Of a stretch of DNA of 28,019 nt, positions 2,017-25,140 are shown piece by piece (the stretch's first letter is position 1; the number at the start of each line of letters is the position of its first letter). Both the position numbers and the translations under genes were made by a program. The notes under the pieces are model-generated. The model saw nothing but the letters and a program-made list of their open reading frames with translations, made no database searches and was not told the origin of the DNA. Origin of the DNA: an uncultured bacterium (GTDB taxonomy: Bacteria > Omnitrophota > Omnitrophia > Omnitrophales > JACQLI01); the NCBI GenBank assembly GCA_964373135.1, contig CAYJTI010000002.1, positions 1 to 28,019 of the forward strand, in the 5' to 3' direction.

Positions 2017-3435
2017 TCAATGACCGAGCGCGCGGGTGAGGCGTGCGGTCAGGCGCTCGGCACCGAGCGGCGGGAAGAGGCGCTTGAGCTCGGGGCCGTG
2101 GGTTTTGCCGGTGAGGGCCATTCGAAGAGGCATGAAAAGGGCTTTCCCTTTCGCCTTGACTTTCCCTTGCAGGGCTCCGACAAAACGTTCATAGAGCTCC
2201 TCGCCGGCCCGAAGAGAAGGAAGGATTGAAGCCGCTGCCTGGAGGATTTCCTGCGCCTCTTTTGTCTTGAGGAGCTTCGAATCTTCGTACGGGAAATCCT
2301 CGTCAAGAATCTGAAGCCGTTCCTCCAGTTCGTCAAAGCGGACGATATTGTCTTTGAAGACCGGGAGGATTTTGTGGACGAGGGTTTCGTCCTGCTTCAG
2401 CTTTTTCTCTTCCTTGAGATAGGCCAGGGCGTGGCGCGAAAATTCTTCGTCCGAAAGCGAGCGGAGGTGCTCGCCATTGACCCAATCGAGTTTGCGGGGG
2501 TCATAAAGGGAGGCCGATTTCGTAATCCGGGAAAGGTCGAAAGTTTTCTTTAACTCCTCCCAGGTGAAGATTTCCCGGTTGTCGCCCGGGGACCAGCCGA
2601 GGAGGGCGATGTAATTGGCGAGGGCGTGAGGAAGCGTGCCCCGTCTCCGGAATTCCCGCACCGAAACCGACTCCAATCGCTTCGAAAGGGGTTCGCCTCC
2701 CGGCCCGTGAATGAGGGAGAGGTGCCCGTACTGGGGCGGGGTGAAGCCGAGCGCTTCAAAAAGAAGGAGATGCCGCGGGGTGTTGGAGAGGTGGTCTTCT
2801 CCGCGAATCACATGGGTGATTTTCATGAGCGCGTCGTCCACGCAAACGGCCAGGTGAAACGTCGGAATCCCGTCCGCCCTTTGAATCACAAAATCTCCCA
2901 TCATCTCATCGAGATTGAATTCGACTTCGCCCCGGATTAAATCATGAACCTTGAGGCGGGGGTTTTCGATTTTGAAACGGACCGTCGGGCGGATTCCCCG
3001 GGCCTTTCTTTTCTCAATCTCCTCCTTTGAAAAGGTGCGCCCCCGGTTGTCAAAGCGGGGCGGCCTCCGCTCAAGGCGCGCCGCGCGCTTCATCTCCTCA
3101 ATCTCTTCCTCTGTGACGTAGCAGTCGTAGGCCTTCCCTGCTTGAATCAGCTCGCGAATGTATTTCTGGTAGGTTGGAATCCGCTCGGATTGCCGGTAGG
3201 GTTCGTACTCCCCGCCCACGCCCGGCCCTTCGTCCCAGCGAATCCCGAGCCAGGCGAGGTCCTCAAGGATGGCGTCAAAATACTCGGGACGGCATCGTTC
3301 CTTGTCCGTGTCTTCAATCCGGAGGATAAATTTTCCGCCCACTTTTTGGGCGAAGAGGTAGTTGAAAAGCGCGGTCCGGACGTTGCCGAGATGAAGGCAG
3401 CCCGTCGGCGCGGGAGCGAAGCGGACGCGAATCAT
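2017..3435 (-). CDS. gltX: Glutamate--tRNA ligase
   Basis: RVRFAPAPTGCLHLGN (HIGH), LRIEDTD, ITHVIRGEDH, PLSKR (KMSKS) and the C-terminal PLRMALTG..GPEL anticodon domain. The ATG overlaps the ispDF stop (ATGA). Confidence 0.98.
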   Translation of the reverse strand: MIRVRFAPAPTGCLHLGNVRTALFNYLFAQKVGGKFILRIEDTDKERCRPEYFDAILEDLAWLGIRWDEGPGVGGEYEPYRQSERIPTYQKYIRELIQAGKAYDCYVTEEEIEEMKRAARLERRPPRFDNRGRTFSKEEIEKRKARGIRPTVRFKIENPRLKVHDLIRGEVEFNLDEMMGDFVIQRADGIPTFHLAVCVDDALMKITHVIRGEDHLSNTPRHLLLFEALGFTPPQYGHLSLIHGPGGEPLSKRLESVSVREFRRRGTLPHALANYIALLGWSPGDNREIFTWEELKKTFDLSRITKSASLYDPRKLDWVNGEHLRSLSDEEFSRHALAYLKEEKKLKQDETLVHKILPVFKDNIVRFDELEERLQILDEDFPYEDSKLLKTKEAQEILQAAASILPSLRAGEELYERFVGALQGKVKAKGKALFMPLRMALTGKTHGPELKRLFPPLGAERLTARLTRALGH

Positions 3436-4841
3436 CGCGGACTTCGAATGAGGGTCACAAGGGCCTCGGCCGTGACGGCGCGGCCTTCCCCTTCCGGACC
3501 CAAGCCCTCCATCGTTTTCGCCTTCACAGAGACCGCTTCCGCTTCCAGTCCGAGGAGGAGGGCGAGCCGCCTCCGGATGAGCTTTTTGTAAGGGCCGAGG
3601 CGGGGCTTCTCCAAAAGAATGACTGAATCAATCCGAGAAGGGAGATGATTTCTCCGGCGGACCTCTTTAAGAACCGCCCGCAGAATTTTTTCACTTCGAA
3701 TATTTTTATGACGGGGGTCCCGGTCCGAAAACCATTCGCCGATATCGCCGGCGCCAATCGCCCCGAGGAGGGCGTCGCTTGCGGCGTGCAAGAGGACGTC
3801 TCCATCCGAATGACCCAGCGCCCCTTTCTCAAACGGGATTCGAACGCCTCCGAGATAAAGTTTTCGCCCCTCGACAAGCCGGTGCGTGTCCCGCCCAAAC
3901 CCCACACAGAACCGGTTCTCTGGTACCGGTTCTGCCGTACCGGTTCTGCCGTACCGGTTCTGCGGTACCGGTTCTGCTGGAACCGGTTCGCGACGGTACC
4001 GGTTCTGCTGTACCGGTTCTGCGGTACCGGTTCTGCGGTACCGGTTCTGCCGTACCGGTTCTGCCGTACCGGTTCTGCCGTACCGGTTCTGCGGTACCGG
4101 TTCTGCTGGAACCGGTTCGCGAGAACCGGTTCGCGAGAACCGGTTCCGATATTCCGCTTCAGCCAGCCGGAGGTCTGAGGATGTGGTGACCTTGAGATTC
4201 AATCCGGAATAGGAAAAAATTTTCACTTTAGCTCCGATGTTTTCCAAAAGCGAGGCCTCATCCGTGGCCGCCAAGGCGCCCGGATGAATTCGGTAAGCCT
4301 TGAGCAAGGTGGAGCGGCGCACAAGCTGGGGTGTTTCGGCCTCGTAGAGATGGGTTCGGTCCACTGTCCCAAGTACTCGGCCATTTCCCGGCGCCACCTG
4401 CTTCAAGGTCGGCACCACGGGACGGGCGAGAATCACGCCCTCAGCCTCCCCCCGTTTTTTCAGAAGAGAGAGGACCGCCGCTTTGGGGGGGAAAGGACGG
4501 GCGCCGTCGTGGACGAGGACCCAGTCCAGTCTCGGAGAGGCTCGGCGGAGAGCGTTCTTCACGGATTCCGCTCGGGTGGCACCGCCCCGGACTAAGTGAA
4601 CCGGAGGGCCTGAGAATCCCCGAAGGATTTCCTTCCTCACCCAGGGCTCGGTCCCGGGCGCAACGGCGAGGAGAATTTCCCGGACCTCAGGGATTCCTTG
4701 AAAAGATTCTAAGGTGTGACGAAGGAGGGGCTTTCCTCCCAGGGGCTCGAAAAGTTTACTCAGGCGGTGTTTCGGCCGGGTCCCTTTATTCCAGAATCGC
4801 CTTCCGGAGCCTCCTCCCGCAATAATTAGGCTAACTCCCAT
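3432..4841 (-). CDS. ispDF: Bifunctional IspD/IspF (MEP cytidylyltransferase + MEcPP synthase) with an ~80-aa repeat-derived linker
   Basis: IspD: LIIAGGGSGRRF, VLVHDGARP, ETPQ, NLKVTT..DL. IspF: VGFGRDTH, GHSDGDVLLHA..DALLGA, VSVKAKT. One continuous frame. The start is set at ATG 4841; the track's extra 45 aa translate a REP hairpin. Confidence 0.93.
   Translation of the reverse strand: MGVSLIIAGGGSGRRFWNKGTRPKHRLSKLFEPLGGKPLLRHTLESFQGIPEVREILLAVAPGTEPWVRKEILRGFSGPPVHLVRGGATRAESVKNALRRASPRLDWVLVHDGARPFPPKAAVLSLLKKRGEAEGVILARPVVPTLKQVAPGNGRVLGTVDRTHLYEAETPQLVRRSTLLKAYRIHPGALAATDEASLLENIGAKVKIFSYSGLNLKVTTSSDLRLAEAEYRNRFSRTGSREPVPAEPVPQNRYGRTGTAEPVRQNRYRRTGTAEPVQQNRYRREPVPAEPVPQNRYGRTGTAEPVPENRFCVGFGRDTHRLVEGRKLYLGGVRIPFEKGALGHSDGDVLLHAASDALLGAIGAGDIGEWFSDRDPRHKNIRSEKILRAVLKEVRRRNHLPSRIDSVILLEKPRLGPYKKLIRRRLALLLGLEAEAVSVKAKTMEGLGPEGEGRAVTAEALVTLIRSPR
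3909..4146. repeat. Tandem array of 17 ACCGGT-core units, period 14 bp (consensus GGTACCGGTTCTGC), in frame inside ispDF
   Basis: ACCGGT cores counted at 3911, 3925, 3939, 3953, 3967, 3982, 3998, 4012, 4026, 4040, 4054, 4068, 4082, 4096, 4111, 4125 and 4139 (13 gaps of 14, 2 of 15, 1 of 16; total 228 bp = 76 codons). Confidence 0.97.
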
Positions 4842-4872: not shown

Positions 4873-4979
4873 CGTTTGACAAATGCGTATCCGGTTTCAA
4901 CCCCCTCACCCTCCCCTCTCCCCCTCTGGGGGAAAGGGTTAAGGGTGAGGGGGAAATCGGGGGCGGAATTTGTCAAACG
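4873..4979. repeat. REP-like hairpin (CCCCTCACCC family, 4901-4953) enclosed by a perfect 12-bp inverted repeat
   Basis: Inner arms CCCCCTCACCCT (4901-4912) / AGGGTGAGGGGG (4942-4953). Outer arms CGTTTGACAAAT (4873-4884) / ATTTGTCAAACG (4968-4979). Intergenic, between the PIN/TRAM gene and ispDF. Confidence 0.85.
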
Positions 4980-6027: not shown

Positions 6028-6096
6028 AAACTGTCCCCCCGGTACCGGTTCTCCGAGAACCGGTACCGGAGAACCGGTTCGCGAGAACCGGTACCG
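6028..6096. repeat. Intergenic cluster of ACCGGT-core repeats including a perfect 15-bp-arm hairpin
   Basis: Cores at 6044, 6059, 6073 and 6087. CCGGTACCGGTTCTC-C-GAGAACCGGTACCGG at 6039-6069. AAACTGTCCCC (6028-6038) is the reverse complement of 22666-22676. Confidence 0.92.
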
Positions 6097-22637: not shown

Positions 22638-22712
22638 GTACCGGTTCTGCCGAACCGGTTCTGCAGGGGACAGTTTACAAATTTGTAAAGTGTCCCCTGC
22701 AGAACCGGTACC
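22638..22712. repeat. ACCGGT-family palindrome (56 bp, one mismatched pair) with a duplicated left arm, between convergent genes
   Basis: ACCGGTTCTGCAGGGGACA-G-TTTACAAATTTGTAAA-G-TGTCCCCTGCAGAACCGGT at 22654-22709, with an extra arm GGTACCGGTTCTGC at 22638-22651. Confidence 0.93.
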
Positions 22713-22715
22713 GAA

Positions 22716-23810
22716 TTAGAGGAGGATGTAGCCCGCCTCGATGGCGTAACGGACGATTTTTTTCAGGAATGCAAGGTCGGTATTCGGGAAGCGGATGGAA
22801 GTGTCTCGGAGAAACGTGCGGGTATTCGTGACATCGAAGGTGAGGGAATTTCCCAGGTAGCCCAGATAAGGCTGAATTTTAGAAAAAATTTCCCGCTCCA
22901 CGGCATCCAGCTTCTCCAGGGAAAATTTCTCGGGGTCAATCACCTCCACCGGCGAAGAGATTCCAAATTCCTCTTTCACCTGGAGGAGCATTTCCAAGGT
23001 GGGCGGATTTTCCGTGACGAGATGAAAGGTCCGGCCCTGGCTGTCCGAACGCCCGGAGAGCGCGAACGCCGCCTCGACGACAAAATCCATCGGCACCAAA
23101 TTGAAGGAATTTTCAAGCCGGGAAGGGACCTTTTTCAAAAGGCCGTGCGCAAAAAGGCGCCAAAAGGGATAAATGACGTTGAACTCACTCACCGCGCCCC
23201 GCTCCGAATCCCCCACGACAATGCTCGGCCGGAAAATCATCGCCGGAAGCCCCTCGGCCAACGCTTCGCGGACCCTTTTCTCGGCCAGATACTTCGTTGC
23301 CTCGTAATGATTGGCAAAGGCGGGCTCCGAGGGAAGCTCATCCTCGAGCGAGTGAAGGGGCGTAAAACTGCCCGCCACATAGGCCGTGCTGAAATAAATG
23401 AAACGCTCAAACGGCCCCCGCTCTTTCATCTCCCAGGCCGCTTCGAGCGCGTGACTCGTCCCTTGAAAATTAATCCGCTCGGCCGCCTCCCACTCGGCCC
23501 CCAGGTTGGTCAAGGCCGCGATGTGATAAAAGTCATGCGTGTGGGCGGTCACGAAATTCCAATCCGTCGTGCTGAGCCCGAGCCTCGGCTCGGTCACATC
23601 CCCCGCCAAAACCCGGATTCGGTCTTTCCCTTTTCCATTGACCCCGAGCTGGCTCAAGAGCCTTTCGGCCCGGGCCTCGTGGGAGTCCCCATTTTTCGAC
23701 CGGACGAGGAGGACGAGTCCGTGGCCGGTCCTTTCCAAAAAAACTCGGACCAACTCCCGTCCGATTCCCCCCGTGGCGCCGGTGAGAAAAACCGTCTTAC
23801 GCCCCATCAT
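22716..23810 (-). CDS. Extended SDR, fatty-acyl/thioester reductase-like (NAD_binding_4 type)
   Basis: FLTGATGGIG, LVLLVR, GDVTEPRLGL, YFSTAYVAG, YEATKY (YxxxK) and IFRPSIVVG. GGAG lies 5 nt before ATG 23810. Confidence 0.88.
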   Translation of the reverse strand: MMGRKTVFLTGATGGIGRELVRVFLERTGHGLVLLVRSKNGDSHEARAERLLSQLGVNGKGKDRIRVLAGDVTEPRLGLSTTDWNFVTAHTHDFYHIAALTNLGAEWEAAERINFQGTSHALEAAWEMKERGPFERFIYFSTAYVAGSFTPLHSLEDELPSEPAFANHYEATKYLAEKRVREALAEGLPAMIFRPSIVVGDSERGAVSEFNVIYPFWRLFAHGLLKKVPSRLENSFNLVPMDFVVEAAFALSGRSDSQGRTFHLVTENPPTLEMLLQVKEEFGISSPVEVIDPEKFSLEKLDAVEREIFSKIQPYLGYLGNSLTFDVTNTRTFLRDTSIRFPNTDLAFLKKIVRYAIEAGYILL

Positions 23811-25140
23811 ACCGCTCCACCACGAGACAAATATTCTGCCCGCCGAATCCAAACGAGTTGCTGAGAGCCCGGTCCACTTTCACCTCCCGGGCTTGATTCG
23901 GAACATAATCCAAGTCACACACGGGGTCCGGCTCTTCATAGTTAATGGTCGGTGGAATCACCCCGTCGCGCATGGCGAGGAGGCAGGCAATGAGTTCCGT
24001 GGCGCCTGCCCCCGCAATCATGTGGCCGACCATCGACTTAATGGAACTCACCGGGATGTCGTAGGCCTTTTCTCCAAACACCCGTTTGATGGCCAAGGTC
24101 TCGATGGAATCGTTCACGAGGGTGGCCGTGCCGTGGGCATTAATGTAGTCGATGTCGTTGGGTGAGAGGCCCGACTTCCGAAGCGCCTGCTCCATCGCCC
24201 GCTTCGCGCCGTCTCCCTCGGGGTCCATATCCGTGAGACGGAAGGCGTCGGCCGTAGAGCCATAACCGGCCACCTCCCCGTAAATCTTGGCTCCCCGCTT
24301 CCGGGCATGATTTAATTCTTCCAAGACCAAGACCGCCGCCCCTTCAGAGAGGACGAAGCCGTCACGGCGTTTATCGAAGGGGCGAGATGCGCGTTCCGGC
24401 GCTTCGTTTCGCCGGGAGAGGACCGTGAGCTGACTGAAGCCCGCAATCCCAAAGGGGTAAATCATGGAATGCGCTCCTCCCGTGAGAAGGATGTCGGCCT
24501 CCCCCCTCCGAATCCATTCACACGCCTCGCCAATCGCCTGACTCGATGCGGCGCAGGCTGTGAGACAACTTGAGACCGGCCCTTTAATCTTAAATTGTCC
24601 GGCCAAATGTCTCACGGTCATAAACGGCTGGATTTCAAGCTCCTGGTGCCCCGTGAGGAAATCCGAGCTTCTTGTGACGTAGCGGGCCGGGTCAACCAGT
24701 TTGCCGTTGTCTCCCCAGGCCGAACAGATGGTGGAAATGAAACCGTCGAGATTGAATCCCCAGTCCCCGGCGGCGAAATAAATCCCGACCCGCTCACTGG
24801 CTACCGGTTCCGAAGGTGCCACGTTCGCGAACGTGGCACCTTCGGAACCGGTACCGAGGCCGGCGTCCCGAAACGCCTCGTCCGCCGCCTGCAGGGCAAA
24901 AAAGGTTGAGCGGCCGGCCGATTTAATTTCAGGATTCCGCCCGCGCCAAAAATTGAAATCAAATCCCCGCACCTCGCCCGCAATCCGGACCGGAAACTCC
25001 TCCGCATTAAAGAGGGTAATGGGTCCGATGCCGGATTTGCCGGCAATCCAATTTTCCCAGTTTTCAGAAACCGTGAGGCCGAGCGGTGTCACCGCTCCCA
25101 AGCCGGTGACCACGACACGCCTGAGACCGTTACTCCCCAT
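23797..25140 (-). CDS. fabF: Beta-ketoacyl-ACP synthase (FabF-like, intact Cys-His-His)
   Basis: RRVVVTGLGAVTPLG, catalytic Cys in TACAASSQA, DGFVLSEGA, YINAHGTAT, KSMVGH and SNSFGFGGQN. Confidence 0.93.
   Translation of the reverse strand: MGSNGLRRVVVTGLGAVTPLGLTVSENWENWIAGKSGIGPITLFNAEEFPVRIAGEVRGFDFNFWRGRNPEIKSAGRSTFFALQAADEAFRDAGLGTGSEGATFANVAPSEPVASERVGIYFAAGDWGFNLDGFISTICSAWGDNGKLVDPARYVTRSSDFLTGHQELEIQPFMTVRHLAGQFKIKGPVSSCLTACAASSQAIGEACEWIRRGEADILLTGGAHSMIYPFGIAGFSQLTVLSRRNEAPERASRPFDKRRDGFVLSEGAAVLVLEELNHARKRGAKIYGEVAGYGSTADAFRLTDMDPEGDGAKRAMEQALRKSGLSPNDIDYINAHGTATLVNDSIETLAIKRVFGEKAYDIPVSSIKSMVGHMIAGAGATELIACLLAMRDGVIPPTINYEEPDPVCDLDYVPNQAREVKVDRALSNSFGFGGQNICLVVERYDGA
24802..24853. 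repeat. Perfect 52-bp palindrome with ACCGGT termini, in frame inside the ketosynthase
   Basis: TACCGGTTCCGAAGGTGCCACGTTCG|CGAACGTGGCACCTTCGGAACCGGTA; each half is the exact reverse complement of the other. Confidence 0.95.

Follow-up and report, generated by a model that had tools for sequence, protein, structure and literature searches.

The window analysed here is a whole contig of 28,019 nucleotides (CAYJTI010000002.1) from the metagenome-assembled genome (MAG) of an uncultured Omnitrophota bacterium (GCA_964373135.1; 1.42 Mb in 196 contigs, 77% complete; hereafter the source genome, G000), and it carries an ispDF gene in which a tandem array of 14-bp units lies between the IspD and IspF domains. 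The analyses indicated that this array probably arose by local expansion of an in-frame copy of a selfish, hairpin-forming repeat that is dispersed in the genome and specific to the lineage, and whose behaviour resembles that of the Rickettsia palindromic elements (RPEs). According to the predicted structure, the product is best read as a normal IspD and a normal IspF joined by a disordered tether, rich in Arg and Pro and about 80 residues long. The features of the gene are as follows, with the confidence of the structure prediction given as pLDDT (predicted local distance difference test).

3432-4841, minus strand: ispDF gene, 469 codons plus stop, with its ATG at 4841 and a stop that overlaps the gltX start at 3435 (open reading frame, Pfam and alignment).
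4149-4841, minus strand: IspD (cytidylyltransferase) domain, residues 1-231 (PF01128 at residues 19-229; pLDDT).
3435-3908, minus strand: IspF (2-C-methyl-D-erythritol 2,4-cyclodiphosphate, MEcPP, synthase) domain, residues 312-469 (PF02542, YgbB, at residues 312-464; D318 and H320 kept; pLDDT >88).
3909-4146, minus strand: array made up of 17 tandem 14-bp units, core (G/T)AACCGGT(T/A)C, which forms the IspD-IspF linker when translated (TRF score 313, 17 cores, six frames open).
3923-3993, minus strand: 71-bp higher-order duplication, copy 1, exact (script comparison).
4052-4122, minus strand: 71-bp duplication, copy 2, at an offset of 129 bp or 43 codons (script comparison).

Structure of the Array and of the Encoded Protein

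Tandem Repeats Finder (TRF) reported a single array at 3911-4146 with a period of 14, 16.6 copies and 89% matches, and a script located 17 ACCGGT cores starting from 3911 to 4139, the last of which ends at 4144; this count of 17 units rests on the assembly, and no single contig of the public Logan collection spans the whole array. The spacing between cores is 14 bp in 13 cases, 15 bp in two and 16 bp in one, adding up to 228 bp, the equivalent of 76 codons. These results agree with an earlier note on this DNA, made from its letters alone, which had described a 17-copy array of 228 bp core to core inside ispDF and had claimed that it lacks stop codons in all six frames. The 238 bp of 3909-4146 indeed contain zero stop codons across six frames; when 5000 segments of 238 bp were drawn at random from this genome, none was equally open. 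The note had also reported a duplicated block of 60 bp; the duplication is exact, as stated, but its length is 71 bp, which makes it the longest exact internal repeat of the array, and its offset is a multiple of three and hence in frame. The window contains 35 occurrences of the motif GAACCGGT, where 1.5 would be expected. The RNA of the array is predicted to fold at -151.9 kcal/mol (z = -8.2), and the exact 71-bp repeats should make its DNA prone to slippage; these two properties together suggest that the array is probably not a regulatory device but a mutational liability.

Both enzymes appear intact on either side of the array. Alignment with 34 homologues showed that every invariant residue is kept in the window IspDF, and the IspF portion starts two codons past the array, with no separate start or ribosome-binding site. 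Position, frame and invariant residues thus support the claim of the earlier note that the array would keep IspD and IspF fused as a translated linker, and the location of IspF immediately beyond the array without its own start signal, together with evident purifying selection, points to translation through the array. The additional linker comprises about 77-80 residues, among which Arg, Pro, Glu, Val and Thr are abundant, and its net charge is +7; its predicted tryptic peptides include TGTAEPVR and EPVPAEPVPQNR. An AlphaFold2 run with a homologue alignment gave a mean pLDDT of 83. Residues 240-307 remained below 50 and had no secondary structure, disorder prediction having been among the checks proposed in the earlier note. 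Both domains were modelled with confidence, most ten-residue blocks scoring above 84 except the weak residues 11-30; within the IspD domain, the block means were 54-63 for residues 11-30, 74 for residues 231-240 and 84-98 elsewhere. This ispDF is the only ispD/ispF locus found in the source genome, and the methylerythritol phosphate (MEP) pathway that it serves is normally essential.

A Dispersed Repeat Family in the Source Genome

The motif of the array recurs throughout the source genome, where GAACCGGTTC was observed 109 times against 1.6 expected. Clusters with at least two cores number 73, and with a second motif included the element loci amount to 79, covering 4.4 kb in total. The canonical element opens with GGT/ACCGGTTC followed by one to four arm units, each of 14 bp and consisting of GAACCGGTTC plus four variable bases; its middle is formed by GGGGACAGTTT, a short loop and AAACTGTCCCC; and its far side consists of one to three arm units of reversed orientation, with GAACCGGT/ACC as the terminus. 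The complete core palindrome, a full inverted repeat, is present at 24 loci, further loci being halves that are frequently cut by contig ends, and 26 copies are arm-only (core-less), with arms that join at a 9-nt centre such as TCTGGCAGA. Terminal inverted repeats, GGTACCGGTTC and GAACCGGTACC, occur at most loci. Compared with the core-less loci elsewhere, the unit list of the ispDF array reads as two core-less family elements in tandem.

3909-3994, minus strand: Block A, putative core-less copy, in which left-arm-type units 1-5 are followed by the 9-nt centre TCTGCTGGA and then by right-arm-type unit 6 (comparison of the unit list with core-less loci elsewhere).
3995-4146, minus strand: Block B, putative second core-less copy, which opens with the terminal signature GGTACCGGTTC, followed by units 7-14 (left-type), the centre TCTGCTGGA and units 15-17 (right-type) (same comparison).

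The coding properties of the arms are shared by the family, whose arm units have hardly any stop triplets in whichever frame they are read. Six open frames were found at 21 of the 26 arm-only loci, with a mean of 5.8 open frames compared to 4.3 in random segments. Since 14 is not a multiple of three, three successive units pass through all frames, and each frame yields a similar hydrophilic peptide, composed of EPV, NR(Y/F) and TG(S/T) plus spacer residues. At a tolerant site, a copy whose total length is divisible by three would therefore leave the gene working. Of the 62 loci that a refined codon-usage classifier could evaluate, 5 were assigned to coding sequence in the correct frame and most of the others were intergenic, which is the distribution expected from purifying selection on random intragenic insertion. 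Among the GGTACC sites of the genome, 116 of 197 lie within or at the ends of elements and 81 lie outside, where they are rare; analysis of restriction-site avoidance for GGTACC and ACCGGT gave no clear signal in the source genome. Contigs of the MAG often end inside family elements (e.g., C20:13140-13190, C124:4328-4378, C156:3359-3378, C19:13200-13238, C72:9-66 and C112:7-78), which indicates that the family fragments the assembly and that the census of 79 loci is an underestimate.

The family was restricted to this lineage in the genomes compared, which comprised 30 relatives, namely four other genera of the same family (G001-G004) and further members of the same order. A two-unit pattern gave 179 matches in the source genome and 0-1 per genome in the 30 relatives, and a 26-mer consensus had no exact match in other GTDB species representatives. 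A looser three-unit pattern matched 53 genome loci and 42 metagenome loci. The matches with at least four cores or several clusters, for which the loci were printed, turned out to be homogeneous local 14-bp minisatellites and were rejected as unrelated; they are without GGTACC ends and without the GGGGACAGTTT core, save one stray core-like match in L113. Among the remaining three-unit loci, core matches were absent and none exceeded a single three-core cluster; these too were treated as unrelated.

In-Frame Copies in Other Genes

Apart from ispDF, in-frame family copies were found in fabF, queA and the genes of a CusB-like adaptor, a prephenate dehydrogenase and a ketosynthase, and the Pfam domains of these host proteins match across the inserts. 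The fabF copy (contig C113, L013:1441-1532) has seven units and adds 36 residues, EPVPQNRYPRTGTAEPVRRNRYSRTGSLEPV plus flanks, in a loop whose counterpart is short in every orthologue from the same-family genera (4/4), and the Pfam ketoacyl-synthase N domain is still recovered as one continuous match. The inserted peptide contains EPV-QNRY-RTGTA, as does the ispDF linker. In QueA, a full element lies within a loop, and the inserts of the CusB/HlyD-type adaptor and of the prephenate dehydrogenase measure 12-17 residues and are located inside or between Pfam domains.

Two side observations concern other genes of this group of bacteria. The QueA loop also carries in-frame palindromes in G004 (L027:1606-1692) and in G001 (L029:1699-1755); the former is repeated at four other loci of its own genome and the latter at one. 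In contig C20 of the source genome (L017:224-2302), RnfC and RnfD are encoded in a single 693-codon frame with an element at the boundary and a second, degenerate copy earlier in RnfC. The rnfC and rnfD genes are separate in G001, G003 and G004, and fused in G002, which is without the element family; the element is at most a possible maker of the rnfC-rnfD fusion.

The IspD/IspF Junction in Relatives and Homologues

Fused ispDF genes were present in 30 of 30 relatives, with open frames of 394-473 amino acids. When the window protein was aligned to these relatives, an insertion of about 77 residues appeared precisely between both domains. For 119 further homologues, junction length was taken as the number of residues separating two fixed anchor columns: it is 86 residues in the window protein, compared to 11-19 residues in 103 of the 119 homologues and a maximum of 59, so that the junction was shorter in all 30 relatives and all 119 homologues. 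The alignment of ispDF from relatives had been put forward in the earlier note, and it revealed a compact junction and no ancient linker of the same length; since the junction of the relatives is compact, the linker of the window protein is not ancient. The linkers of the four same-family relatives are without an ACCGGT-type site, and G002 has CCGGTGCCGGT only. The slightly longer linker of G002, RGSGRPAAPVPVKA, which contains CCGGTGCCGGT, was considered as a relic of the repeat and rejected, because a similar pattern, CCGGT pairs two bases apart, is not enriched in that genome; the linker site is attributed to chance.

The order PIN/TRAM-ispDF-gltX of the window was found in the four same-family genomes. 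The ispDF stop and the gltX start form an ATGA-type overlap at window 3432-3435. This overlap and the conserved gene order suggest that the genes form one translationally coupled operon, which would be transcribed through the hairpin-rich array.

Proposed Origin of the Array and Alternative Explanations

In the proposed origin, a core-less element would have arrived at the IspD/IspF junction, presumably the most permissive site of the protein, since IspD and IspF are separate proteins in most bacteria. Growth would then have proceeded by unit slippage and by one 129-bp (43-codon) in-frame duplication, with purifying selection eliminating every out-of-frame length and with the resulting linker being close to neutral. 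The earlier statement that selection would allow only length changes in multiples of three is arithmetically true.

Several points weigh against this origin. That the array is translated is something we infer from the arrangement of the gene. Its copy number comes from one short-read assembly, and the Logan contigs break inside it. No RAYT (repetitive extragenic palindrome-associated tyrosine transposase; PF01797) was detected in the source genome, which is 77% complete, and no transposase was found, the parent insertion sequence (IS) having been searched for only as RAYT. A target-site duplication was not visible either, with no direct repeat outside GGT...ACC, and mobility is therefore deduced from the distribution alone. 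The window protein is a singleton: in a word-indexed search of 5.8 billion proteins, the closest protein was about 65-70% identical (65% by BLASTP, 70% by alignment), and an exact search of Joint Genome Institute (JGI) metagenome contigs with the flanks of the array gave no match. The ispDF copy terminates in GAACCGGTTC and not in the canonical GGTACC, and this, like the short junction that remains when the array is collapsed, leaves a small chance that the seed lay inside the native linker.

That alternative, the one favoured in the earlier note, holds that GAACCGGTTC was part of the original linker and was amplified in place by slippage, independently of other loci. It draws on the fact that the array both starts and finishes with GAACCGGTTC, and on the compact junction predicted by the note, which was reproduced here: collapsing the first core onto the last gives ..AEAEYRNRFCVGFGRDTH.., which leaves about 10 residues from anchor to anchor, near the minimum of 11 and the range of 11-19 in relatives. 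Slippage, however, requires at least two tandem units at the outset, and no such site exists in the linkers of the four same-family genera, where G002 has only CCGGTGCCGGT and the similar pattern of CCGGT pairs is not enriched. Moreover, the same 14-bp unit, spacers (TCTGCCG, TCGCGAGA), GGTACC ends and 9-nt centre occur at 79 loci, most of them intergenic, and Block B opens with the terminal signature of the family. The recurrence of the family at these loci indicates that the array was seeded by the dispersed repeat and then grew locally, and expansion from a native site is accordingly considered very unlikely.

An assembly artefact, in which the array or most of its length was made or mis-sized by an assembler looping through the dispersed repeat, has an equally small probability. 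The MAG is in 196 contigs, many of which end inside elements; in addition, a Logan contig across the whole array is absent, and runs of three identical units exceed k = 31. The public data on the locus consist of Logan contigs (k = 31) from four runs of two studies, in which rare variants are not visible. In all four runs (4/4), unique IspF sequence is joined to roughly the first 40 bases of the array with 0 mismatches (3754-3954, 3683-3948, 3672-3942 and 3802-3952); in two runs, the last array units are joined to unique IspD (4080-4243 and 4075-4160); and one contig covers the array centre (3936-4039). No array-skipping contig was present among the Logan contigs of the four runs. Independent runs of two studies thus recover both edges and the unique centre, each with 0 mismatches, and the existence and position of the array are well supported by these contigs. 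The flanking synteny is the same as in relatives, the 71-bp repeat is below usual read and maximum k-mer lengths, and the frame is preserved at the length given by the assembly, for which the chance would be 1 in 3 if that length were arbitrary. The check on sequencing runs across the array proposed in the earlier note hence bore out its edges and centre, its copy number being drawn from the assembly alone; the true number could be off by some multiple of three units or by one 129-bp block.

It is very unlikely that the linker is adaptive, that is, a flexible and positively charged tether selected for IspDF assembly, channelling or localisation. Junction insertions do recur in about 16 of 119 Omnitrophota-type homologues, where they measure 20-59 residues. 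Two of these 16 long junctions were inspected at the DNA level, and both consist of strong palindromes of unrelated repeat families: L125:1562-1726, with a fold of -49.5 kcal/mol, and L126:2200-2277, with a fold of -50.2 kcal/mol. Recurrent insertions of unrelated families with unrelated peptides argue for tolerance and not for function, the near-identical units of the window array look recent, and the same type of peptide is found in unrelated enzymes. Judging from these sequences, the IspD/IspF junction is a recurrent landing site for palindromic repeats. As a separate observation, a different GC-rich palindrome, CCCCCTCACCCT...AGGGTGAGGGGG, lies at window 4901-4953, within the 143 bp that separate the PIN/TRAM gene from the start of ispDF, and elements like it (with peptides such as PSPLSS..GRGxGEG) form the in-frame IspD/IspF linker in the Omnitrophota homologues P0091, P0093, P0114 and P0017.

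Hardly credible is the contingency (phase-variation) switch suggested in the earlier note, in which gain or loss of a single 14-bp unit would toggle IspF in the population: a unit length that is not a multiple of three, the 71-bp exact repeats and the strong hairpin potential would favour slippage, but with a single ispD/ispF found in the genome and an essential MEP pathway the off state would be lethal and not adaptive, no indel, alternative joint or length variant within the array was seen in the Logan contigs of the four runs (contigs, however, hide rare variants), and the ACCGGT repeat is also in fabF and queA, where switching makes no sense.

A wider proposal was also considered, that the element is adapted to survive inside genes and serves broadly in Omnitrophota to create linkers between domains, longer loops and fused genes. 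It builds on the openness of the element in six frames and on the similar soft peptide that each frame encodes, and different repeat families have independently hit the IspD/IspF junction and one QueA loop in different genera. This is doubtful; if it were true, protein architecture in the phylum would be driven to a significant degree by palindromic repeats, and a fragile array in an essential gene would represent a measurable mutational load.

Further Family Copies in the Window

The window holds three further copies of the family, two of them intergenic and one in frame in the ketosynthase gene.

6028-6092, no strand assigned: intergenic family copy, half core AAACTGTCCCC plus four arm units (TRF, element census).
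22640-22709, no strand assigned: complete intergenic copy, arms plus GGGGACAGTTTACAAATTTGTAAAGTGTCCCC plus arm (full-palindrome list).
24803-24852, minus strand: palindrome with ACCGGT-family ends in the ketosynthase open reading frame 23797-25140, about 18 residues added (GTGSEGATFANVAPSEPV), inside the ketoacyl-synt N domain (in-frame mapping, Pfam).

Comparison with Known Systems

Contingency loci, such as those of Neisseria and Haemophilus, have units of 1-8 bp, lie in dispensable surface or restriction-modification genes and are polymorphic in populations. The ispDF array resembles them in being a tandem repeat that lies inside a gene and has a unit length not divisible by three. It differs in its 14-bp unit, in the absence of variants from the contigs and in its host gene, which is essential and, with one ispD/ispF locus in the source genome, neither dispensable nor redundant. 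Compared to ordinary IspDF proteins, the window protein has the same two domains in the same order with the catalytic residues kept; the matching solved chains (PDB 8xhu and 1w55) comprise 371-381 residues, with a compact junction and an IspF start near residue 204-222, whereas the window protein has about 80 extra residues, predicted to be disordered, between its domains.

The anatomy of the element appears closer to that of repetitive extragenic palindromes (REPs) and miniature inverted-repeat transposable elements, or MITEs, and its behaviour, by analogy, to that of RPEs. Like REP, BIME and REPIN sequences, the family consists of short GC-rich imperfect palindromes in inverted pairs, mostly intergenic and on a scale of hundreds of copies per Mb. 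It differs from REP/REPIN-RAYT systems in that no Y1 transposase (PF01797) was found in the source genome (77% complete), the element is without a GTAG-type head, and the arms are tandem, with several copies apparently translated. The prokaryotic MITEs Correia/NEMIS, ERIC, BOX and QMITE have been reviewed (PMC10969869). The family shares with MITEs the terminal inverted repeats (GGTACCGGTTC...GAACCGGTACC), the small size and occasional in-frame fusions to open reading frames; it is, however, without a visible target-site duplication, no parent IS was identified in a search limited to RAYT, and the length of the element is not fixed and varies by the number of 14-bp units.

The closest parallel in behaviour is with RPEs (Ogata et al., 2000, Science 290:347; summarised in PMC10969869). 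In both cases a dispersed palindrome is found in frame in unrelated housekeeping genes, mostly those of metabolic enzymes, and adds a peptide at loops or junctions with the fold kept. The family of the source genome shows the features of this class, being multi-copy, hairpin-forming and in frame in several genes whose orthologues are without it, with the fold kept. RPEs are single units of about 100-150 bp in obligate intracellular alpha-proteobacteria, whereas the present family has tandem 14-bp arm units of variable copy number that can multiply at one site (17 units, 238 bp), lies for the most part between genes and belongs to an Omnitrophota MAG; the two are likened by behaviour, and sequence homology is not expected. 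No paper on such repeats in Omnitrophota was found. Relative to RPEs, the family thus differs in its modular architecture of 14-bp units, its in-place expansion and its host phylum.

This comparison bears on how proteins and repeats coexist in these bacteria. On the present reading, the hinge of an essential two-enzyme fusion can accommodate repeat DNA that has freshly expanded and encodes about 80 residues, and in Omnitrophota a few permissive sites, such as the IspD/IspF junction and the QueA loop, appear to be repeatedly colonised by unrelated palindromic repeats. Repeats of this kind fragment MAG assemblies, inflate the annotation of "novel linkers" and yield spurious repeat peptides in protein databases. 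Among the known systems compared, the modular, frame-neutral and stop-free 14-bp arms of the present family represent a new architecture.

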